Source: Firmicutes bacterium UBA5324 (GTDB lineage Bacteria > Bacillota > Negativicutes > UBA11029). From it: 56,146 nt of DNA. The DNA lies in assembly GCA_002411145.1 (NCBI GenBank), contig DHRA01000025.1, forward strand, positions 1-56,146, in the 5' to 3' direction. A program made the position numbers and the translations under genes. The first letter of the stretch is position 1. Each line of letters begins with the position of its first letter. The notes below the pieces were generated by a model. That model did no database searches. It saw only the letters and a program-made list of their open reading frames with translations, and had not been told where the DNA came from. Below, one piece after another: positions 23,548-34,594 of the stretch.

Positions 23548-23620
23548 GATTAACACAAAGAAACGAAGAAGCCAAGGGGGCAAACTATTCCTGTGCTTCT
23601 TGGCTTCTTTGTGTTAATTC
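23548..23620. repeat. family E hairpin repeat (ACACAAAGAAG units)
   Basis: gattaacacaaagaaacgaagaagccaagg ... gcttcttggcttctttgtgttaattc. A single-arm copy lies at 2288-2309. Confidence 0.6.
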
Positions 23621-23640
23621 CCGGTAAAGGAGGACTTCTC

Positions 23641-24690
23641 TTGGATACGCGAATGCTGAAAATCAACCCGGAAAAACCGGATATGGCCCTTATTGGAGCA
23701 GCGGCCGGCGTCCTGCGCGCCGGGGGTATCGTGGCTTTCCCCACCGAGACGGTCTACGGGCTGGGCGGTAACGGACTGGATGAGGCAGCCGTCGCCAGGA
23801 TCTTCAAAGCGAAGGGACGACCGGCGGACAATCCGCTGATTCTGCATATTGCCACGCTGGAAGAATTGGGGCTGTTGGTGCGCGAGATTCCACCGGCGGC
23901 GCAGAAATTGAGCCGCGCTTTCTGGCCCGGGCCGCTGACCCTGGTGTTGCCGCGCAGTGAAAAGGTACCTGACATTGTTACCGGCGGGCTTGATACGGTA
24001 GCCGTGCGCATGCCCGATCATGTCATCGCCCAACTGCTGATTGCCAAAGCGGGAGTTCCCATTGCCGCACCCAGCGCCAACCTTTCCGGGCGGCCCAGTC
24101 CGACCGATGCGGCCGCTGTGTGGGCGGACATGCAAGGTAGGATAGACATGGTGGTGGACGGTGGACCAAGCGGCATCGGGGTGGAATCCACGGTTATCGA
24201 CCTGACCGCCGCAAAACCTGTATTGCTGCGGCCCGGGGGTGTAACCCTTGAGGAATTGCGCGCCGCCTTGGGGGAAGTGTCTTTGTGCGGGAGCCTGACG
24301 GCGGAAACCGGGCAGCCAAAGTCGCCGGGCATGAAATATACCCATTACGCACCGCGGGCGCCGGTTATTGTGGTTGAAGGAAAACAACCGGCGGTAGCCC
24401 GCGTTTTAGAAGGGGAGATTAAGACATACCGGGCAAAGGGAAATTGTGTTGGACTCCTGGCTACCCGGCAGACGGCCCGCCGGATCCGGGCCGATGTGGT
24501 AAGGGAAATGGGAGACGCGGCGGATCTGTTTTCTGTGGCCTCCGGGCTGTTTTCCGCCTTACGCTCCTTTGACGATACGCCGGTGGACGTTATCCTGGCG
24601 GAAGGTGTTTCAGAGGAAGGCATTGGCTTGGCGATCATGAACCGTCTCCGCAAGGCCGCAGGCTATCGTCTGATCCATGCTGACAAGTGA
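23641..24690 (+). CDS. tsaC: L-threonylcarbamoyladenylate synthase (Sua5/YwlC type, with C-terminal Sua5 domain)
   Basis: TTG at 23641 is 8 nt after AAAGGAGG; the alternative is ATG at 23653. The ORF-track start at 23593 lies inside the repeat arm. Motifs VAFPTETVYGLG, KGRPADNPLILH and SANLSGRPSPT. Confidence 0.9.
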   Translation: MDTRMLKINPEKPDMALIGAAAGVLRAGGIVAFPTETVYGLGGNGLDEAAVARIFKAKGRPADNPLILHIATLEELGLLVREIPPAAQKLSRAFWPGPLTLVLPRSEKVPDIVTGGLDTVAVRMPDHVIAQLLIAKAGVPIAAPSANLSGRPSPTDAAAVWADMQGRIDMVVDGGPSGIGVESTVIDLTAAKPVLLRPGGVTLEELRAALGEVSLCGSLTAETGQPKSPGMKYTHYAPRAPVIVVEGKQPAVARVLEGEIKTYRAKGNCVGLLATRQTARRIRADVVREMGDAADLFSVASGLFSALRSFDDTPVDVILAEGVSEEGIGLAIMNRLRKAAGYRLIHADK

Positions 24691-24789
24691 ACTTGTCTGG
24701 CTATGCCAGACTTCGGGGCTTCAGGTGGAGGCTCAGACGTTCAAACGAGACCTGATGATAATTCAGTGTATGTAATGGATTCTTATTTT

Positions 24790-24798
24790 TGCTATAAT
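24790..24798 (+). promoter_or_regulatory. extended -10 element (TGcTATAAT) upstream of the MNT/HEPN pair
   Basis: tgctataat at 24790-24798. No convincing -35 box. Confidence 0.3.
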
Positions 24799-24853
24799 AT
24801 ATGTATAGAATAAGTGTTGTAAGCATATTTTGCTCGAGCGGGAGGTGTATGGA

Positions 24854-25195
24854 GTGGCAATGGATATACTGAAAGCGAAGGACAATGAGCATGTTGCACT
24901 GGCTGAACTAAAGAAACGTGTACAAGAGAAAACGGCAGTCGAGAAAGTTGTTGTTTTTGGTTCGGTAGCTCGCGGCGAGGCAACAGAAGACTCCGATCTG
25001 GATGTATTGATTCTTACGGAAGAGCCAATTTCCTATACGGAGGAAACTTTTATATTTGATATAACGTTCTTTGTTAACCTGGAGTATGATACCAACATTA
25101 GCGTAGTGGTTATTCCAAAGGAAAAATGGGAATCTCCTGTCTGGTCGCTGCTACCACTTCATCAGGCAATTGCCAGAGAGGGAATTGCCGTATGA
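24854..25195 (+). CDS. nucleotidyltransferase-domain protein (MNT-type antitoxin)
   Basis: GTG at 24854 is 8 nt after GGGAGG; alternatives are ATG 24860 and TTG 24830. Minimal NTase motif VVVFGSVARGEATEDSDLDVLIL. Confidence 0.8.
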   Translation: MAMDILKAKDNEHVALAELKKRVQEKTAVEKVVVFGSVARGEATEDSDLDVLILTEEPISYTEETFIFDITFFVNLEYDTNISVVVIPKEKWESPVWSLLPLHQAIAREGIAV

Positions 25196-25596
25196 CCGCG
25201 GAAGGCAATGTGAAAGAGTTAGCGCGTTACTGGCTGAGCAAGTCGCTGGAGGCGGAAGAAGGTGCGATGTTGCTGTTTGAGCATCGGCAATGGCCGGCCT
25301 GCGTCAGTAGGCTGTATTATGCCTCATTTTATGCTATGAGTGCGCTTCTTGCGTTGCGGCAGTTAAGCTACGGAAAGCATTCCGCTGTTAGGGCCAGCTT
25401 GCATAGAGATTTTGTAAAAATGGATGTATTGCCTGTAGAGGCAGGCATGGTGTACAATCGGCTATTTGAATGGAGACAAAAGGCCGATTACGAAGCTTTT
25501 CTAGAAATGAATGAGCAAATGGCTGAAGATCTTTTAACACAAGCCAGGGATTTGCTTGAAGTGTTGCGCAAACACGCAGAGGCTGAGATTGGCTGA
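25192..25596 (+). CDS. HEPN-domain protein (toxin partner of MNT)
   Basis: 134 aa. The ATG at 25192 overlaps the upstream stop (ATGA). All-helical, with SRLYYASFYA and a WRQKADY HEPN-type motif. Confidence 0.8.
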   Translation: MTAEGNVKELARYWLSKSLEAEEGAMLLFEHRQWPACVSRLYYASFYAMSALLALRQLSYGKHSAVRASLHRDFVKMDVLPVEAGMVYNRLFEWRQKADYEAFLEMNEQMAEDLLTQARDLLEVLRKHAEAEIG

Positions 25597-25723
25597 TTTA
25601 GATTAAAGTTAAGACGTTTTATTGTGGCTAATATTTTCGTGATATTTCATGATGAAATATGTTGGTCATAATTTTGCAAAAAATTACAAACATGGAAGGG
25701 AAGTTACGATAGCTTACAGAATT

Positions 25724-25759
25724 TGAGACATAATTCACCTTATGTGGTGGATTATGTCT
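25724..25759 (+). terminator. 10-bp perfect hairpin, possible weak terminator after the TA pair
   Basis: gagacataat - 16 nt - attatgtctc. Only a short T tract follows. Confidence 0.3.
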
Positions 25760-25896
25760 CTTGACTTAAATGGGATAATATTGCTAGCGAGCCGTGAAAA
25801 GCTTAAGAAGAGTGCATTCATTTCAGCATCGATAGCCTTAGTTGGTTATAGCGGATATGGAGTAAAATAAGAATGGGAAACAATGATTGTCATCGG

Positions 25897-25927
25897 TTGC
25901 ATATCTATTTTTATTGAATTATATAAT
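25897..25927 (+). promoter_or_regulatory. candidate sigma-A promoter of the four-gene operon
   Basis: TTGCAT (25897-25902), 17-nt spacer, TATATA (25920-25925), or TATAAT (25922-25927) with a 19-nt spacer. AGGAGG at 25942-25947 and the TTG start at 25956 follow. Confidence 0.4.
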
Positions 25928-25955
25928 AATGGTGATTGCCCAGGAGGTGCTGTTT

Positions 25956-26951
25956 TTGAGAGAAACGATTGCCCACTATATAGCCAACTCCACCCGCAAG
26001 ACGCTCAATATTAAAGATTTTATTCCTTATTATCGCTATAGCGATTTGGTGGACGAAATCAAATCGCTGGTTACTAAAGGAGTACTAATGCCACGCGGAA
26101 GGCTCAACGGATTGAAACAGTCACTATACCATTCATACACTATTCACCGTGCGCCGAACGAGCAGTTACTTATTGAGATCCGCAATCTACCGCCTTACCT
26201 GCAGAATCAGTATTATGTCCAGCACCCCAAAGCTTATCAAGAGGACAAGCCTTATATAGATAGGCTATGCGACTTTTATGAAAATAATAAAGACCTACTT
26301 TCGTTTCCAGCGACGCTTAACGAACGGGCCTATCAGTTGGTTGGTAATGAAAAGTGGTTGTTGCCTAAATTTGGCGGGTTGGCAGTACTTACTCGGCTTG
26401 GTATCGCGATTGAAAGTCTGAATGTGTTTGCTACGCCTGAACCCTTTCATTATGTGCAGTATAACCAGTCGATTCGGACTGTGCTGATTTCCGAAAATAA
26501 AGATGCATTTTATGACATAAAAAAACTGGCGAAGGGGCTACCGTTTCGCTTGTGGAATGTCACGATTGACCTGTTAGTCTGGGGAGAGGGAAGTCACATC
26601 GAAAATAGCTTTGAATTTATGATTGAGCTAAATGCGATGCCAGACTTAGAAGTATTTTACTGGGGGGACCTCGACTATACCGGCATAGGAATTTTTACCC
26701 GGCTCATTGAGAAATTCCCCCAGAGCCGGATCGTGCCCCATTGTCAATTATATAAGGAAATGCTTGACCGGACGCCTAACCCGCCCGAACAGACTACAGC
26801 AGTTCGAGAAAAGGATAAGGAGATTCAGATATTTTTATCCTTTTTTGATGAACTTCAGCGACACAATATACAATCGCTCTTACTGCGAAATCGTCGCGTG
26901 CCGCAAGAGTCGGTCCCTTTCCATATCATGAGTAGGTTGGTGATGGCGTGA
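25956..26951 (+). CDS. Toprim-domain protein, JetD/MksG-like (putative nuclease subunit)
   Basis: 331 aa from the TTG at 25956, 8 nt after AGGAGG; the ORF extends up to 25887. C-terminal half: VLISENKDAF (Toprim Glu, codon 26493-26495), then FYWGDLDYTGIGIF (DxD, 26667-26675) and a terminal RVPQES. This ENK ... GD-D--G pattern is as in Topo VI-A/Spo11-like Toprim and DUF2220. Confidence 0.7.
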   Translation: MRETIAHYIANSTRKTLNIKDFIPYYRYSDLVDEIKSLVTKGVLMPRGRLNGLKQSLYHSYTIHRAPNEQLLIEIRNLPPYLQNQYYVQHPKAYQEDKPYIDRLCDFYENNKDLLSFPATLNERAYQLVGNEKWLLPKFGGLAVLTRLGIAIESLNVFATPEPFHYVQYNQSIRTVLISENKDAFYDIKKLAKGLPFRLWNVTIDLLVWGEGSHIENSFEFMIELNAMPDLEVFYWGDLDYTGIGIFTRLIEKFPQSRIVPHCQLYKEMLDRTPNPPEQTTAVREKDKEIQIFLSFFDELQRHNIQSLLLRNRRVPQESVPFHIMSRLVMA

Positions 26952-28501
26952 ACGATTATTTCAGTGATTTTGAAACACGAATACGAAACTTAGCGCCCCT
27001 ACAATACCTAGCGACCCGGACGCAAGACTTTCAACGTTCCTATACATATCCTCTTTACCCGATGGCACTTGGCATGCTTATTCTGATCTATGAAGGTATG
27101 CTCATTAATGAACATCACTCGGCTCAATCGCTCGCGAACGAAATGCGCAAGCGCTGGACAGGCATTTTGGTTGCCAATAAGCAGGGCGATATCGATACAG
27201 TAGTGCAGGTATTATTGTTTTCAATCCTGCAAAACGATGGCATACCCTACGTCTATAGTGATATTATACCGACAACAGGAGCTACAGTCGAAGTCCCTGT
27301 TAAATTAATAGAAACCGCTGACTTTGATATTTCACAGTCGTACGCGACTTTTCGCTTAACCAGTCAGGGACTCGAACTACTTTATGCATCAAAAGAAATA
27401 CCCGGTGAACTCCAGCTCACAATCGAACAGTTATACCTACGGCAGCAATATGAGGGGGGCCACTTTAATCAAGCCCTGCAGCACATCCAAAACATTTATC
27501 AAATCATCCGTTTACTTTCGCAGGATATCGACCAAACCAGTCGCGCTTTAATGGCCGATGCCTTTAGTGTACAGTTTGAAGATTTTGAACAGGTTATCCA
27601 CCGCAAGACCGAGATCAACCAGCGCGAAAAAAAGGAGTTTATGCTACTTCATACCAAAGTCCGCCAAGATCGGAAAAGTGTGGAGGACCAGGAGATTCGC
27701 AACCAAAAAGATGACGATGCACTCCTAATGCTGCGACGCATCGAATCCAATCTACAGGGCTTAGTGAAAGAACATGTCCGACTGCTCAATAAGACGCAAG
27801 ACCTCAACTCTCGGTTTTTAGAATCGCGGCGGCAACGCATCGCTCTGGCTTTACGGCGGCAGATTCACTACCGGAATGATATTCTGACGCCATGCATCGA
27901 AGAAAATCCACCCATTGAAATGGCCTATCACGGCATCTACTTTTTATTTCGGCAACGCCCCTCACACTTTAGCCCGCTCTGGTGTTTTCATAATCAACTG
28001 CCCAAAATCATACGAAGCGATGAAATCGAAACAGCAGATGATTATAGCCCTGACGAAGAAGCCGCTGAACGGCTAGCCGAACAGCGCAGATACGAAGCCA
28101 GCTTTTACCGGCACGCCCTTAGCCGATTTATCCGCAGGATGACGCCAGGCGAACCTCTATCCATCAGTCAATTTTTTACGCTCAGCGATAGTGAGCGGCG
28201 CAAATATGAAAACAGTTTCCATTTTTTCTTTATTTTCATTCAGCTTTACCGGATCGGGGTACTTGATCTAAGCAAGTTGACGAAAGAGGATTTGATTTAT
28301 AGTGAAAATGAGCCGATTGATATTACCCAAATTATTGCCCGCCACCGGGTTGATCACCCGGAATCTTATCCAGGACGCTATATTGTGGTGAGCGGCAACG
28401 GCAAGACTTATGTGACAAGCGGCGGTGCAAGCATAACTGACTTTGCTCTCCATATCGTTGATTCGATTGAGGAGGTGGCGCTTGATGTATACACAGGATG
28501 A
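26948..28501 (+). CDS. unknown 517-aa protein, candidate kleisin-like (JetA/MukF-position) subunit
   Basis: The GTG start overlaps the upstream stop (GTGA). Its size, predicted helical character and its position before a small protein and an SMC-like ATPase parallel jetA/mukF. I recognise no diagnostic motif. Confidence 0.45.
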   Translation: MNDYFSDFETRIRNLAPLQYLATRTQDFQRSYTYPLYPMALGMLILIYEGMLINEHHSAQSLANEMRKRWTGILVANKQGDIDTVVQVLLFSILQNDGIPYVYSDIIPTTGATVEVPVKLIETADFDISQSYATFRLTSQGLELLYASKEIPGELQLTIEQLYLRQQYEGGHFNQALQHIQNIYQIIRLLSQDIDQTSRALMADAFSVQFEDFEQVIHRKTEINQREKKEFMLLHTKVRQDRKSVEDQEIRNQKDDDALLMLRRIESNLQGLVKEHVRLLNKTQDLNSRFLESRRQRIALALRRQIHYRNDILTPCIEENPPIEMAYHGIYFLFRQRPSHFSPLWCFHNQLPKIIRSDEIETADDYSPDEEAAERLAEQRRYEASFYRHALSRFIRRMTPGEPLSISQFFTLSDSERRKYENSFHFFFIFIQLYRIGVLDLSKLTKEDLIYSENEPIDITQIIARHRVDHPESYPGRYIVVSGNGKTYVTSGGASITDFALHIVDSIEEVALDVYTG

Positions 28502-29243
28502 TATTAAGGCGGCGGTGCAAGCTTTTTATCGCCTATTAGATATAGGCGAACTAACTGCCAAAGATCCGCTATTGCCCGCTTTGCGTTGCCCGGAAATTCA
28601 AGAAGTATTGAGTATCCTGGCGGACGAGGCCGCCATGACGGTACTATATAATCTGCCTACGGCGGCATATCTGTTGCCCCGGGAACCATTCAGCATATTC
28701 AGCTATCGCAATGAAGAGCTTGTGAAGATTTTTGGCGGCACGCCAAACAACGATAAACTCTATACTTGCTACGTTATCATCATGATCTTCCTGGCTGAGT
28801 TTTACTCGTCCAACAACTATACTGCCCAGAGCCGTGACTTTATTTCCTTCCGCGACTTTTTCAGTTTAGTCAATGATACCATGGATGCCATGCTGGCCCG
28901 GCCGGAAATTGACGAAGTTTCGCAGTCGGTTAACATCCGCTTTAGCGACGGTGCTAAGTACTGGACAAGCCTGAATTCCTTTGATCCGCGAGCCAACCGA
29001 CAGGTCGGCGGACAGCGGAGCGACCAGGTCTCGTATATGGAAAAGGTCTTAGGCATTCTGCAGAATCATAAATTTATTACGGTCGACAACCTGCAACGAA
29101 AAGAACTCTCCGATAACTCGATTATTTACGTGACACCGAAACTAACCGCCTTTATGATCGGTTACTACGGTAATGAGGAGCGTAAAAAGCAGCTTCTCAA
29201 GTATATTCGTGAAGGAGTTATGCCTGATGCCATGCCTCAATAG
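28485..29243 (+). CDS. unknown 252-aa protein, candidate KITE-like (JetB/MukE-position) subunit
   Basis: ATG at 28485 is 9 nt after GAGGAGG and overlaps the upstream gene by 17 nt. Size and position parallel jetB/mukE. The C-terminal KVLGILQNHKFITVDN...IIYVTPKL looks like a winged-helix module. Confidence 0.45.
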   Translation: MYTQDDIKAAVQAFYRLLDIGELTAKDPLLPALRCPEIQEVLSILADEAAMTVLYNLPTAAYLLPREPFSIFSYRNEELVKIFGGTPNNDKLYTCYVIIMIFLAEFYSSNNYTAQSRDFISFRDFFSLVNDTMDAMLARPEIDEVSQSVNIRFSDGAKYWTSLNSFDPRANRQVGGQRSDQVSYMEKVLGILQNHKFITVDNLQRKELSDNSIIYVTPKLTAFMIGYYGNEERKKQLLKYIREGVMPDAMPQ

Positions 29244-32200
29244 GGTGCGCTACGTCAACTTCCGGTATGGACAAAACGGGTCTATGGTGATGCGGGACAA
29301 AAGCTTTGATCTGGCAGGGGAAAGTACCCTGTTTAACTTAGTGAACTCCGGCGGAAAAACATCCCTTATCCATATGATGGCGCAAGCAGTTATCCCGAAC
29401 GCCAGCTTTGATAAACGGAAACTGGATCTTTATTTTCAGGGCGAACCACACACTACCCACGTTCTTATCGAATGGGTGCTGGATGGCGACAGCGGCTATT
29501 TATTAACCGGTTTTTGTGCCAAGGGCGGACATGGGCAAGTGCAGCGATGGCTTGCCTATCAGCACCATTACTATTATGACAATCCGTTTTCGCTGGATCG
29601 CATACCGGTTATCGTTGACGATCAAGTAACTCTCTATGATAAATTCAGTAGTATTTTACGCCAGGCCAAGCAAAGCGGGACATCCTTATCTGTCTACTTC
29701 GATGATGAGAAAACCAAGTATATGAACGACCTTATCAACTACGGCATCATCGCGAAAGAATGGGAAATGCATCTGCGCATTAACATGAAAGAGACGGACG
29801 GACTCAGAGCTTATTATGGCAAGTGGAAAACCTCAAAGGAGCTAATGGAACACGAAATTATTCCCAAGATTGACGATAAAGTACAAGCTAAGCAGCCGCT
29901 AAGCGACTATCATGCCTGTCTGCAAAAGCATTACAGTCAGTTGTGCCAGGAGCCCCGTATTCGGGCCGAAATCGCCGATCTGCGTGCGTTGGAACCGATG
30001 ATTGCAAAATGGAGCAGCGCAGCTGAGCAACTGGAAATTGCAGAACAGGCACAAGCGGCGGCGGATACGGAACTGTCACGATTCCGGCTTGGAGTGACAG
30101 AACAGGCCGATGATGTGGAGGCTGGACTAACAGAAGCGCAGGAAAAAGAAACATCCCTAATCGCACGGCAGCGGCAAACTGAATTTGAGATAAAGTCGCT
30201 GGAGCTTTATAATGTTAGAGCGACAATTGCCGAAATCAATCATTTAATTAGTGTTAAAGAGACGGGGATACAGGCGGATGAGGCCGAACGAGCAGGTATT
30301 CAGACACGTCTGACAGAAGCTCTGGCCGTTGATTTGTTCCGTATCCTTGAAGACCGCGAATACGATGTCGAGAAGCTTAGAACTGAACAACATAATGCTG
30401 CTGCCGGTCAAGAGGAATTGAAGGAAAAACTCATCACTACCGGCAGTATTCTTGCTGCTTATGCCCGAGCCGCTATTGAACGGCTGGATCAGGAGATTGC
30501 CACTTACAAGCAAAAGATGCTCGCTCTTGAACAAGGCAGGCAGGATACCGAACAGGCGGTGGCTGGCGATCAGCAGCAACTACAGCAGGTATCAGCCCGT
30601 GTCGAAGTATTGAAGTATCAAATTCAGCAGTTTACGGATGGAGTCTATAAAGAGGCCGAAGACGCACTCTCGCCGCTTGAGTTTATTGACCTTGAAACTG
30701 CTCCAGACGCATTCGTTGTCAAAGCGGATAGGAATCTCAAACAGCTTGAGAAAATTAGCAAAGAGGTTAATGCCTGCTTAAGCGAGGCGCAAAGCCGCAA
30801 AGAATCCCTTTTAACACAGGTAACGGAGCTGGAAAAAACGCTGCAGCAATGGCAATTTGCCCGCGAGCGGCAGGTGGATTTCTGCAAACGCCACGAAAAA
30901 GCGGAAACTGATATCATGGCTCGTCTGATAGGGTTCGTCACAGATGCGCAGGATGTTTATAATGCGCGAGCGAAAACCAAAATGGCGGAACGCCGGCAGC
31001 ATTATGAAGCTAGGTATAAAGACTGTGAGGAGCGTTTGCGCGAGTTATGGCCCGAGCAAAAGAAACTGAGCGGTGATTTCTATGTGGCGACTGGCCATAT
31101 TACGACCCTAGTCAGCGAATTACACCGGATTGGTATTCAAGAAGCCATTGCCGGCAGCGCGTATCTACTCAACCAACCGAACGCCGACAGTTTATTGGCT
31201 TTGCACCCGGAACTGCCATATGCCGTTGTTGTCAACCGACAGTCGATCAGCAGGTTGCAGCAGCGCTCTAACGCGTTGGCGATCTCGGCGCCTACGATAC
31301 TATTAGCCCGGGAAAGTCTCGGCGATAACGTCTCTGCCGAGGCGGAAAGCTTTGTTATTACACTAGCCAAGGATATCCATGCCGTGCGCCCGGATGATTT
31401 TCGCTACTACCTTTCCCGCGAAGAATATACTACTCTCAAAACCAAGGTTCAGAATGAAGTGGATCAGATGGAGCAAGAGAAAACAGTTTGCCGCAACCAG
31501 CAAAGTCATATTTCCGGTTTGCTTGACGCTGCTAACCAGTATCTTGAAAACTTCCCGCTGGATGCCTATCTGGCAGTACAGGCTGAAGTCCGCCGGATTG
31601 AGGGTGAAATTAGTGATCTCACCGAGCAGAGCGGTATACTGAAAGGAGATATTAAACAATTAACCACGACCATTGACGAGTTGATAACCCGTGCTGCCGC
31701 TGCCGTAACCAATGTCAACGCGACGGCGGCGCTTAAGGCACTGGTTGAACGGTTTACCAGGGATCACCGTGCAAATGCTGAAACTAAACAGCAGCTCGCG
31801 ACTTGCGAAAAACAACTGGCTGAACTGCAAGGAAAATTTGATGAAGGCAAACGATGTATAGACCGTATTCATAATGAGCAGCGGCAAACTGAACGGCTCA
31901 TTTATAATACCGAACGGCTAAAAGAAGAGCCGGACGACATTTTAGAAGCCGTAATGGGATACTCCCAACCCATTAGCTGCGATACAGCAGCGGTGGACTC
32001 GAACCGCCTTAGTGCTGAGTTTCAAGGCCTCAAAACGTTGTACGAAGGAACGGTTCAGGAGGCTGATTTACTGGCTCGTAAGATTATGGAGGCGGAGCGG
32101 GCTCGCAATAAAGCCGAGCGGGAATTTACCGAGCTCGGCGTGAACCGTGAACGCTGCAAACAGCTTTATCCACAAACTGACTATGTGAAAGATCAATGGA

Positions 32201-33582
32201 GAAAGCAAATCAGCGAATTAACCGAATTAATTCGTTGTCACGAAATGGAAAAAATGCGTCTGACCGGAAAGCTCGATTCACCGCAAGAGGCGGAAACTAA
32301 ACTGCTGAAGGACATACACCGCCACTTTGGATACGAACCGCAAACCGAGTTTGATGATGGTGTGACGCTCGATTCTCTTGCCGAATTAAGCAAGCGAATT
32401 AAAGCTGCAATTGCTGAAGTGGGCAAGGTTATCGAAGAACATAAAAAGCGGCTTGATATATTGACCAACATAAAAAACAGCTTGAAAGAAGAGCAGCTGT
32501 CGCCCGTTAACGATCCCTTACCCTTTGCTTTCAGCGACGCTTTGATGCTTTCGGCTAAACTGGGGAAAGCCCGGAGCCAAGCGGCCGTGAACGTCGCCAC
32601 AGCGAGAAGTGTCGTAACGCAGGCGGTCCATGCTCTTAGCCGCTACGAACGCATTAGTGATTCGAAACCGGTTGAAGATTTGGTTCGCAAATTCGGTAGC
32701 GGTGATACCGCGTTATTTAGCGGCGAAGTCGCCCGCAAGAAAGCACAAGAGATCAGCATGATCATTGAAGATCAAGTACGGGCGCTGGAACTACAAAAGG
32801 CCAGGATCGACGAAGACCGTAATGAGATTATTGACAGTCTTCTCAAATGGACTGAATTCGCCAATGACGAGATCCACGAACTTGTGTCCTGCTCGCGCAT
32901 TAAACTACAGGATAGCCGACGCGCCCTGGTCGAGATCCGAAAGCTTGAAAAGCCGAGTGAGGAGCAAATGCGTGAACGCCTGGCACTATTCATTACCGAG
33001 ATTATCGGCAAACTTAACGATAACTACCAGGCCGACGCTGATGAAGCCAAGCTCACCGTGGCTATTGCGGGTTATCTTTCAGCATATAACATTCTAGATA
33101 AGACTGTTAATGTCAGCGCGGCAGAAGTTATGGTATGGCTCGCTGAAATCAACCCTGGTGCAAGCCGGATGATTCCATGGGAAGAGGGGCAGTCGGGTGG
33201 ACAAGGCCTGTTAACCGCCTTTGTAATGTACATAACGTTGATGACATATACCAGTAAGGAACATGGTAAGATTAATCAGACAAAGACGTTGTTTGCAGAT
33301 AATCCCTTTGGGATAGCGAATGCCGAACATCTTTTGACAGTATTGTTTGGTATTTTGCATGAAAACCGTATTCAACTGATGGCTTATACCGGTATCGAAG
33401 ACAAGAATATCTATCGCCGGTTTCCCCGCGTTTTCTTACTGCGACCGGTTGATTCGGCCAATAAGCGATACACCGTTCTTCATACCGAACAAATCAAATC
33501 CGGCAGCGGAACTATTGCCCTACAGGAGGCGGTCGCACGGCGGGTTGATCTCATGAACTATTCGCTGTTTGATGAAGAATAG
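29227..33582 (+). CDS. SMC/MukB-like ATPase with very long coiled coils (JetC/MksB-like)
   Basis: 1451 aa from the ATG at 29227, 9 nt after GAAGGAG, with a 17-nt overlap. N-terminal P-loop LVNSGGKTS (29344-29364). Two Glu/Gln/Arg/Lys/Leu-rich helical arms of roughly 500 aa each. Central non-coiled hinge-like segment (about 31100-31450: GIQEAIAGSAYLLNQPNADSLLALHPELPYAVVVN). C-terminal ABC signature QSGGQ (33190-33204) and Walker B-like TLFADNPFG (33286-33312). Confidence 0.75.
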   Translation: MPCLNRVRYVNFRYGQNGSMVMRDKSFDLAGESTLFNLVNSGGKTSLIHMMAQAVIPNASFDKRKLDLYFQGEPHTTHVLIEWVLDGDSGYLLTGFCAKGGHGQVQRWLAYQHHYYYDNPFSLDRIPVIVDDQVTLYDKFSSILRQAKQSGTSLSVYFDDEKTKYMNDLINYGIIAKEWEMHLRINMKETDGLRAYYGKWKTSKELMEHEIIPKIDDKVQAKQPLSDYHACLQKHYSQLCQEPRIRAEIADLRALEPMIAKWSSAAEQLEIAEQAQAAADTELSRFRLGVTEQADDVEAGLTEAQEKETSLIARQRQTEFEIKSLELYNVRATIAEINHLISVKETGIQADEAERAGIQTRLTEALAVDLFRILEDREYDVEKLRTEQHNAAAGQEELKEKLITTGSILAAYARAAIERLDQEIATYKQKMLALEQGRQDTEQAVAGDQQQLQQVSARVEVLKYQIQQFTDGVYKEAEDALSPLEFIDLETAPDAFVVKADRNLKQLEKISKEVNACLSEAQSRKESLLTQVTELEKTLQQWQFARERQVDFCKRHEKAETDIMARLIGFVTDAQDVYNARAKTKMAERRQHYEARYKDCEERLRELWPEQKKLSGDFYVATGHITTLVSELHRIGIQEAIAGSAYLLNQPNADSLLALHPELPYAVVVNRQSISRLQQRSNALAISAPTILLARESLGDNVSAEAESFVITLAKDIHAVRPDDFRYYLSREEYTTLKTKVQNEVDQMEQEKTVCRNQQSHISGLLDAANQYLENFPLDAYLAVQAEVRRIEGEISDLTEQSGILKGDIKQLTTTIDELITRAAAAVTNVNATAALKALVERFTRDHRANAETKQQLATCEKQLAELQGKFDEGKRCIDRIHNEQRQTERLIYNTERLKEEPDDILEAVMGYSQPISCDTAAVDSNRLSAEFQGLKTLYEGTVQEADLLARKIMEAERARNKAEREFTELGVNRERCKQLYPQTDYVKDQWRKQISELTELIRCHEMEKMRLTGKLDSPQEAETKLLKDIHRHFGYEPQTEFDDGVTLDSLAELSKRIKAAIAEVGKVIEEHKKRLDILTNIKNSLKEEQLSPVNDPLPFAFSDALMLSAKLGKARSQAAVNVATARSVVTQAVHALSRYERISDSKPVEDLVRKFGSGDTALFSGEVARKKAQEISMIIEDQVRALELQKARIDEDRNEIIDSLLKWTEFANDEIHELVSCSRIKLQDSRRALVEIRKLEKPSEEQMRERLALFITEIIGKLNDNYQADADEAKLTVAIAGYLSAYNILDKTVNVSAAEVMVWLAEINPGASRMIPWEEGQSGGQGLLTAFVMYITLMTYTSKEHGKINQTKTLFADNPFGIANAEHLLTVLFGILHENRIQLMAYTGIEDKNIYRRFPRVFLLRPVDSANKRYTVLHTEQIKSGSGTIALQEAVARRVDLMNYSLFDEE

Positions 33583-33720
33583 CAACATGGATTGCTGGTT
33601 GTCCATGTTGCGTAAAGTAAACTATAATTAGGGTGTTCTCTTCTGTTCTGTTATCAGCTGTTATTATTCCATTACCACAGTGTTCAAATCCACCCTTTTT
33701 ACAAAAAAAGGAATAATTAA

Positions 33721-33766
33721 AACCGCGAATTGTTTGGATGTATGACAGACAATTCGCGGTTTTTTG
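33721..33766 (+). terminator. rho-independent terminator of the island operon
   Basis: aaccgcgaattgt - loop - acaattcgcggtt (13-bp perfect stem) followed by TTTTT. Confidence 0.75.
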
Positions 33767-33880
33767 CTGTATATTTGGTATATTGGTATAGGCATAGATG
33801 AAAGAAGCGTTTTATTATTAATTGGCTAAGAGCGGATTTTCCCGCGGGGTATATCTTTTTTGCTAAAGCATATAATTTAA

Positions 33881-33908
33881 CCACCGGAAAAAGCCGGTGG
33901 ATTTTTTT
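33881..33908 (+). terminator. second rho-independent terminator upstream of mntP
   Basis: ccaccgg-aaaaag-ccggtgg followed by ATTTTTTT. Confidence 0.65.
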
Positions 33909-34000
33909 GGGCTATCGGCCATAATCCATACCGTACATGAATGCGGAGGCAAACTCCGCCGCTGCGGCTCGGCGCAAGTCTAATGACTAAGGAGGTTGCA

Positions 34001-34594
34001 ATGAGCATCGTAAGGTTGATCTTGCTAAGCACCGCTTTGGGGACAGATTTGTTTTCCGTTACTCTGGGTTTGGGGATGAACCGGTTTCGCCTGCGGCAGA
34101 TTCTGAAAGCCAGTGCCTGTTTTGCCCTGGCACACGTATTTTTGTTACTTACCGGCTATAACTTAGGCCACTACCTTGGTTACTTTGTGGAACATATCGG
34201 TACCCATCATAACCCCTTTACTTCGGATTCCATGCAAAACTGGGCCGGTATGCTCGGGGCTTTCGTACTGGTATTGCTGGGGATAAACATGATTTGGGGT
34301 AATATTAACGAAGATGATGAAAAAGTCTGCGTGCGGGCTGTCAACCCGCTGCGGGGATTAAGCCTTATGTTGATGGCGGTAAGTGTCAGTCTTGATGCCC
34401 TGGCCGTTGGTTTCGGGCTGGGCATGCTTGATGTGGATCTAATCCTGTTATGTGTTATTCTGGGCATAGTTATTTTTCTCATCGCCCTGACCGGCTTAAT
34501 GCTGGGTTGTAAATTAGGGGTAATGATCGGCCAACGGGCGGAACTGGTGGGTGGTCTGGTGTTGATTGTTGTGGGCCTGAATGTGTTGCTTTGA
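34001..34594 (+). CDS. mntP: manganese efflux pump MntP (YwlD)
   Basis: 197 aa from the ATG at 34001 after AAGGAGG. Two repeated halves with GTDLFSV and SLDALAVGFGLG motifs, and AELVGGLVLIVVG as in E. coli MntP. Confidence 0.85.
   Translation: MSIVRLILLSTALGTDLFSVTLGLGMNRFRLRQILKASACFALAHVFLLLTGYNLGHYLGYFVEHIGTHHNPFTSDSMQNWAGMLGAFVLVLLGINMIWGNINEDDEKVCVRAVNPLRGLSLMLMAVSVSLDALAVGFGLGMLDVDLILLCVILGIVIFLIALTGLMLGCKLGVMIGQRAELVGGLVLIVVGLNVLL

Follow-up and report, generated by a model that had tools for sequence, protein, structure and literature searches.

Asparagine at the catalytic glutamate position of JetC in a Wadjet type III operon of an uncultured Bacillota, and its conservation among type III homologs

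The open reading frame (ORF) at 29227-33582 on the forward strand of contig DHRA01000025.1 from Firmicutes bacterium UBA5324 was analyzed within a window of 56,146 nucleotides, that is, the whole stretch of DNA under study. It represents jetC in a complete operon of Wadjet type III, jetD-jetA-jetB-jetC (25887-33582), and since all four genes matched type III models, its product is the structural maintenance of chromosomes (SMC)-like subunit of a known anti-plasmid defense system. Judged by profile alignments and predicted structure, the ATPase head of this JetC carries a real asparagine, Asn1359, at the position of the catalytic Walker B glutamate, and not one created by an alignment shift. 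The atypical motifs noted in the sequence-only reading that drew attention to the gene proved to be no peculiarity of this copy; they are common property of the type III JetC (JetC3) family, and the operon is an ordinary Wadjet type III member that nothing essential sets apart. A family-wide ATP site lacking the glutamate in a presumably homodimeric SMC protein seems not to have been described before, and no mention of the Asp-Asn site of type III JetC was found in the searchable full-text literature.

All nucleotide-binding motifs of JetC were located on the + strand. The Walker A motif, or P-loop, LVNSGGKT (L38-T45; 29338-29361) was placed by HMMER alignment of the family P-loop to the GxNGxGKS of ABC ATPases; Lys44 and Thr45 are kept, and leucine takes the place of the first glycine of GxxxxGK[ST]. 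Ser41 is the minority state at its position, which is glycine in 121 of the 124 family members described below. The signature (C-loop) QSGGQ (33190-33204) was aligned by hhalign to LSGGE of SbcC and to KSGGQ of type I JetC (JetC1). In the Walker B motif TLFADNPFG (33286-33312), Asp1358 is kept and is followed by Asn1359 (codon AAT, 33301-33303) at the catalytic glutamate position. Asn1365 (33319-33321) stands at the D-loop aspartate position, aligned to the final Asp in JetC1 DEAFDKAD and in SbcC DEGFGTLD, and the strand IQLMAYT with the invariant Gln1383, then Gly1389 at the H-loop histidine position (33373-33393), was aligned to RecN TQVMCVTH. The coordinates given in the sequence-only reading for the P-loop, QSGGQ, TLFADNPFG, and the AAT codon were all exact. 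Its description of a P-loop that keeps the Asn and GK[ST] and lacks the first Gly also held in the set of 124 family members, with N40 and K44 in 124 of 124 and Leu at the first Gly in 119.

The profile of the 124 family C-terminal heads was aligned by hhalign to canonical ATPases, namely, type I JetC from a Ralstonia megaplasmid (PADLOC JetC1 E=0; Walker B VVLDEAFDKAD, P=4.9e-5), E. coli SbcC (LFLDEGFGTLD, P=1.5e-4), E. coli MukB (D1406-E1407, P=1.6e-3), and E. coli RecN (IFDEVD, P=0.015). All four alignments paired D1358 with the Walker B Asp and N1359 with the Glu, and those with JetC1 and SbcC also paired the family Asn/Ser at 1365 with the D-loop Asp. For RecF, hhalign gave no usable alignment and no significant match. 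The Pfam family SbcC_Walker_B was matched by 8 of 13 C-terminal heads.

The N- and C-terminal half-heads were modeled separately with AlphaFold2. In the C-terminal model (residues 1175-1451; predicted local distance difference test [pLDDT] score of 88), the strand KTLFAD terminates at D1358 with N1359 directly next to it, and SGGQ starts a helix, the signature lying at the N terminus of helix 151-168 of the model. The N-terminal model reached a pLDDT of 89, and Foldseek likewise returned JetC heads first. The best PDB matches in Foldseek were type I JetC heads (8dk3, 9qxx, 8q72, and 8as8) and type II (9qe0), then Rad50, SMC, and MukB, with probabilities of 0.98-1.00. By these models, the JetC head has the SMC/Rad50/JetC fold, built from both ends of the chain. 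Searches of the PDB by sequence with C-terminal head, N-terminal head, and full-length profiles and with proteins P0015 and P0283 returned only coiled-coil proteins or ABC-transporter P-loops and no JetC, MukB, or SMC head; the MukB C-terminal head as the query returned MukB alone, and JetD3 returned nothing.

Conservation was analyzed in homologs collected with a profile of the N-terminal head, which was run against 1.84 billion cluster representatives and yielded 1719 proteins at E<=1e-3; 124 full-length representatives (50% identity clusters) were taken from the best 150 of the 1719. Because the set was gathered by the N-terminal head profile only, the C-terminal motif played no role in the selection. 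The D, N, and P of Walker B were present in 124/124 members and the F in 123/124, giving the pattern hhhhDNPF[GA]. Twelve residues were found in all 124 members (N40, G43, K44, E82, W83, N186, E189, S1323, D1358, N1359, P1360, and Q1383), and R8 is also invariant in this set, the mean column identity of which is about 30-38%; conservation of the motifs is far beyond chance. In the P-loop, L38 occurred in 119/124, G41 in 121/124, and S/T45 in 124/124 within this branch of the family. The signature columns read S1323 in 124/124, G1324 in 111/124, and G1325 in 116/124, then E or Q. Position 1365 was N in 59, S in 44, and T in 7 of the 124 proteins, the six most frequent residues including no acidic one, and position 1389 was G in 75, D in 30, and H in 11.

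A second search seeded with a plasmid copy from the B. cereus group gave 119 full-length proteins from Bacilli (B. cereus, Neobacillus, Cytobacillus, and Paenibacillus), in which DNPF and GSGGQ were both present in 119/119. Their P-loop reads NGGGK-G and ends in GKG, also in 119/119 (P0170-P0289; loci L085:5893-10452 and L090:12416-16978), so that the Walker A Ser/Thr, normally Mg2+-binding, is lost in these copies. Asp-Asn was also found in type III copies of Streptomyces, Microvirga, a B. cereus plasmid, and E. coli. The sole case without Asn came from Priestia megaterium plasmid pFDU301A (L088:12929-17509), where the motif is IVTDHLFG, with His after the Walker B Asp; this divergent JetC-like ORF encodes 1526 amino acids in a D-A-B-C arrangement and is assigned to the family only putatively. 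Asp-Glu at Walker B was found in none of the checked homologs (124 plus 119 full-length proteins and the individual type III copies).

That the asparagine might be an artefact, produced by a shifted by-eye alignment or by decay of a pseudogene, is hardly credible given these data. The sequence-only PDB searches with head profiles, which yielded no SMC or JetC chain, and the modest probabilities of single hhalign alignments, from 3% to 68%, do speak for such a shift. The four independent hhalign alignments nevertheless converged on the same column, which is also supported by the AlphaFold2 topology, by the Foldseek matches to JetC heads, and by the matches of C-terminal heads to SbcC_Walker_B. 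The by-eye Walker B alignment of the sequence-only reading was therefore correct, and its suggestion that conservation of the Asn be checked in homologs was borne out by Asp-Asn in 124/124 and 119/119 proteins. It had also named what would overturn it, and neither a Glu in the column nor, among the checked homologs, one with Asp-Glu nor any decay was found. The intact ORF, the identical protein on three contigs of public assemblies, the motif invariant in 243 full-length homologs, and the lack of Asp-Glu exclude the pseudogene reading.

With regard to function, we give an even chance to the proposal that JetC3 heads bind ATP and engage but hydrolyze it slowly or in a gated manner. The head keeps what it needs to bind Mg-ATP and to hold it between two heads, namely, the Walker A Lys-Thr, the signature Ser-Gly-Gly, and the Walker B Asp, and these residues are strictly selected (K44, S1323, and D1358 conserved at 100%). 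Nearly throughout the family, Asn stands in for the catalytic Glu and Asn/Ser for the D-loop Asp. The operon holds a single jetC copy. JetC is presumably a homodimer like other SMC proteins, and the substitutions would then be present in both composite ATP sites. ATP binding and engagement of the heads would be normal, and hydrolysis would be slow or would occur only on a trigger, such as DNA, JetA, or JetB. The outcome would be a long-lived engaged, DNA-clamping state. Going by the literature on the other types, the complex would still sense small circular DNA and license the JetD nuclease.

Several points weigh against slow or gated hydrolysis. Plasmid sensing by type I requires ATP hydrolysis, and the authors of the type II work extrapolate loop extrusion to type III, with which a strongly crippled ATPase is hard to reconcile. 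No ATPase measurement of any type III complex was found in the searchable literature. The strictness of the Asn, compared to the relaxed Q/S/T/E of short LmuB proteins of Lamassu systems, points to an active part in the chemistry rather than just a lost base. The structural evidence consists of separate half-head models without nucleotide; Asp-Asn was checked in relatives, from the B. cereus group, of the experimentally tested B. thuringiensis JetC; and the residue-level comparison covered type I JetC, SbcC, MukB, and RecN.

JetC3 might instead hydrolyze ATP at normal, fast rates and extrude loops by means of another catalytic chemistry, which we regard as rather unlikely. By analogy with small GTPases, which use a Gln for the purpose, the Asn might then position the attacking water together with an Arg/Lys in trans, or another carboxylate might serve as the base. 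The absolute invariance of D-N-P-F would fit an active role, and the signature is near consensus, unlike the signatures that pair with ABC sites that are truly inactive (PMC7756269). The plasmid-restriction phenotype of type III is the same as that of types I and II, hydrolysis is required in type I, and R8, E82, N186, and E189 are invariant. Two pairs, E82/W83 and N186/E189, were considered as compensation for the lost Glu. Glu82-Trp83 (29470-29475, + strand) lies in the strand after the Walker A helix, and Asn186 and Glu189 (NMKE; 29782-29793, + strand) lie at the base of the N-terminal coiled-coil arm. By hhalign, E82 was aligned to the Glu in the SbcC strand AEVEFEV, and N186/E189 align to SbcC LTGTEIYG and MukB LPENSGV. 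Both pairs were therefore rejected as type III-specific substitutes: SbcC and MukB retain the Walker B Glu and yet possess their counterparts, and E82 is probably ancestral and not a stand-in for the catalytic Glu. Fast chemistry would also be disfavored by the Q-loop, as no conserved Gln was found in residues 150-171, opposite SbcC SQGQ, in an alignment of low confidence, and the GKG ending in Bacilli, with loss of the Walker A Ser/Thr, points to a generally weakened site. The H-loop His is also missing in MukB and JetC1.

JetC3 might also lack useful hydrolysis altogether, with ATP acting only as a binding switch or the protein sensing the cellular ATP level, and with no processive loop extrusion in plasmid recognition; we consider this improbable. 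It would agree with the replacement of the catalytic Glu and the D-loop Asp, joined in Bacilli by that of the Walker A Ser/Thr, all of which would affect both sites of a homodimer, and with the Asn-bearing degenerate sites of ABC transporters, which hold ATP without turnover (PMC7756269). The retained SMC-kleisin-KITE-Toprim architecture with its long arms would nevertheless be costly for a mere switch, and measuring DNA circularity without translocation has no known mechanism. In Lamassu, moreover, where Walker B deviates in a similar way, ATPgammaS cannot stand in for ATP (PMC12663957).

Outside the heads, residues ~250-1190 of JetC matched coiled-coil proteins only (myosin, Rad50, and SMC arms), with a conserved middle at ~625-715. 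A conserved segment in the middle of the protein, flanked by the two long arms (31099-31371, + strand), shows little or no variation at G643, L647, and P661 in one family alignment and is presumed from its sequence to be the hinge. JetC has 1451 amino acids; the PADLOC JetC3 models span 1451-1494 positions and type III homologs 1447-1530 amino acids, and its length is ordinary for this type. The sequence-only reading had put it about 350 amino acids above typical JetC, which is right relative to type I (1118 amino acids in Ralstonia) and does not make the protein an oddity, since such a length is the norm in type III; the closeness to MukB in size that it noted was confirmed (1451 versus 1486 amino acids). 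The long arms of types II and III have already been noted (PMC12647877; 10.1101/2025.03.10.642339).

The four jet genes lie side by side on the + strand, with an overlap at every stop/start junction. The first, jetD (25887-26951), encodes the Toprim/DUF2220-family nuclease subunit (PADLOC JetD3 E=3.9e-71; Pfam JetD_C E=7e-12, 45.5 bits against a cutoff of 22), and the internal ATG at 25929 may be its true start. The product of jetA (26948-28501) matched PADLOC JetA3 with E=8.2e-55 over residues 1-505 of 517 and no Pfam family above the threshold; it is presumed to be the kleisin subunit. For jetB (28485-29243), presumed to encode the KITE subunit, matches to Pfam DUF6063 (E=7.4e-36; 124 bits, cutoff 27) and PADLOC JetB3 (E=1.4e-42) were obtained. 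Its start is likely the ATG at 28485 rather than the ORF opening at 28443; GAGGAGG is found upstream at 28469-28475, and the Pfam and PADLOC matches start at ORF residue 15. The SMC-like ATPase gene jetC (29227-33582) matched PADLOC JetC3 model PDLC00583 with E=4.1e-83, residues 2-1425 of 1451 aligning with model positions 2-1450 of 1471. Its ORF runs uninterrupted from the ATG at 29227 to the TAG at 33580-33582, with the Shine-Dalgarno sequence GAAGGAG at 29211-29217, ten bases 5' of the start. An NCBIfam scan of JetC gave SMC coiled-coil matches, all below the threshold. The three contigs carrying the identical protein belong to assemblies of uncultured Bacillota, as do the nearest relatives of this JetC.

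The stop codon TGA of jetD and the start codon GTG of jetA share GTGA, and overlaps of 17 nucleotides occur at both jetA/jetB (28485-28501) and jetB/jetC (29227-29243), with a strong Shine-Dalgarno sequence inside each upstream gene. These junctions suggest that the operon may be translationally coupled. The gene order D-A-B-C was found in 68 of 80 related genome loci and A-B-C-D in proteobacterial type III copies; the 80 loci were found with a clade alignment, and as the search patterns contained MDNPF, they are no unbiased test of Asp-Asn. When the LmuB model of Lamassu was compared with this JetC, its best match reached only E=0.0023, inside the coiled coil, and the neighbors were JetD, JetA, and JetB according to PADLOC.

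Among the other type III copies, the E. coli Wadjet system has the order A-B-C-D (L091:241-7639 of NZ_CP134663.1), with a JetC3 of 1478 amino acids that matched PDLC00587 with E=0 and reads LLADNPLG at Walker B. This JetC3 was present in 93 of 5426 complete genomes, that of SMS-3-5 among them; its location was chromosomal in every case, and insertion sequences interrupt it in some strains. No PADLOC JetB model matched the ORF between its jetA and jetC. The protein is annotated as a hypothetical protein, and NZ_CP134663.1 is a chromosome-sized, 4.9-Mb record filed as a plasmid, which looks mislabeled. Neobacillus vireti encodes a type III-like JetC, P0283, of 1489 amino acids with GKG and DNPF. 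P0283 was ruled out as the JetC of the solved type II complex from the same species; it has no PDB entry and is a separate type III copy, so that N. vireti appears to carry two Wadjet types. When the type III JetC of B. thuringiensis was sought on plasmids, only copies from B. bombysepticus, B. mycoides, and B. cereus turned up. On the P. aeruginosa plasmid pPUV-6 (L086:7521-8375), a gene annotated as encoding a JetD-domain protein of 285 amino acids was found without adjacent JetA, JetB, or JetC, beside a Tn3 transposase and a mercury-resistance operon, and may be an orphan or a remnant.

The operon lies in an island at ~24700-33940, between sua5 (23593-24690) and mntP (33941-34594), within the conserved block prfA-prmC-sua5 / mntP-PTP (phosphatase)-rpiB-DUF436-glyA. 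In the island, the GC content drops to 0.45-0.49 and the GC skew to ~0, compared to 0.50-0.57 and +0.1 to +0.2 in the flanks, both being depressed over 26-34 kb, a composition consistent with a small acquired island. Directly 5' of jetD, a nucleotidyltransferase gene (24830-25195, + strand; NTP_transf_2, E=2e-14) overlaps a HEPN-domain gene (25126-25596, + strand; E=1e-13); from their domains, the two look like an MNT/HEPN toxin-antitoxin pair that shares the island with jetDABC. Between jetC and mntP, 300 nucleotides 3' of jetC, a strong hairpin resembling a terminator, CCACCGG-AAAAAG-CCGGTGG with a T run behind it (33881-33910, + strand), probably marks the end of the operon; the hairpin itself (33881-33900; seven pairs, six of them G-C) is the strongest terminator-like site within 24600-34100. 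A manganese riboswitch was suspected upstream of mntP and rejected, the whole window having no match to any Rfam family.

Taken together, Wadjet type III may be a whole family of SMC complexes working without the catalytic Glu in either ATP site and, in Bacilli, also without the Walker A Ser/Thr, a proposal to which we give somewhat less than an even chance. Were it true, either SMC-type translocation and plasmid sizing could use a different catalytic chemistry, or type III would recognize plasmids by a long-lived ATP-engaged clamp and not by fast loop extrusion, which would give a single defense family a second way of sensing. Replacement of the Walker B Glu by Gln is the standard means of stopping SMC motors. 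Type III naturally carries a change equivalent to the one that kills type I, yet one type III operon restricts plasmids. For annotation, Asp-Asn is near-universal among the checked family members, and the absence of Asp-Glu is therefore no ground for scoring JetC3 as degenerate or as a pseudogene.

Wadjet type III was reportedly defined by Doron et al. 2018, and types II and III have been described as largely uncharacterized. A type III operon from B. thuringiensis placed in B. subtilis blocked plasmid transformation and conjugation and required the Toprim Glu of JetD (10.1101/2022.10.04.510915). The operon analyzed here agrees with type III in its four genes, DUF6063 JetB, DUF2220/JetD_C JetD, and a JetC within ~1450-1530 amino acids, and has the D-A-B-C order of most Firmicutes loci; it differs from type III of the B. 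cereus group in that the P-loop of its JetC branch ends in GK[ST] and theirs in GKG.

Type I JetC/MksB (E. coli GF4-3 and P. aeruginosa PA14; PDB 8as8, 8q72, and 8dk3) matches the structure of both halves of the head best, and type I shares with type III the kleisin, KITE, and Toprim nuclease partners and a JetC without the H-loop His. Type I differs in the canonical VVLDEAFDKAD (Ralstonia copy), a size of ~1100 amino acids, shorter arms, and the order A-B-C-D, and its sequence similarity to JetC3 is visible to profiles only. In type I, JetC(E1022Q) abolished ATP hydrolysis, plasmid loss, and cleavage (10.1101/2022.10.04.510915). Type II, represented by Neobacillus vireti nvJET-II (PDB 9qe0/9qe1), was the top Foldseek match for the N-terminal head and among the top 10 for the C-terminal head; sequence searches of the PDB with JetC3 gave no sequence-level match to type II JetC. 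Type II resembles type III in its long coiled coils and in the channel-less hinge as reported (PMC12647877), and its ATPase turns over ~100 ATP per complex per minute (10.1101/2025.03.10.642339); under the conditions of that work, type I and type II rates lie at about 100-400 ATP per complex per minute.

MukB is similar to JetC3 in size (1486 amino acids), in the lack of the H-loop His, and in the neck motif LPENSGV aligned to N186-E189; it differs in keeping D1406-E1407 and in its partners MukE/MukF, the kinship being detectable by profiles only (P ~1e-3). RecF of E. coli, with a natural Asp-Asp (LIDDFASELD), offers a likeness without Glu and differs in having no coiled coil. Lamassu LmuB also naturally lacks the catalytic Glu, with hhhhDD in long forms and hhhhD[Q/S/T/E] in short forms, and was inferred to be a slow ATPase gating a nuclease (PMC12663957; PMC10586767). 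LmuB differs in its LmuA/LmuC partners, a length of ~650 amino acids, a zinc hook, and a variable residue where Asn is invariant in JetC3. The degenerate sites of ABC transporters (Pdr5, CFTR, TAP1/2, and ABCC1) likewise have the Glu replaced, by Asn in Pdr5, often with changes in the H- and D-loops; they retain ATP and hold the domains together, and in the TAP1 nucleotide-binding domain, a D-loop Asp-to-Asn change favors MgATP-dependent dimerization (PMC7756269). In these asymmetric transporters, a second consensus site hydrolyzes ATP, whereas in a JetC3 homodimer both sites would deviate identically and neither would be of the consensus kind.

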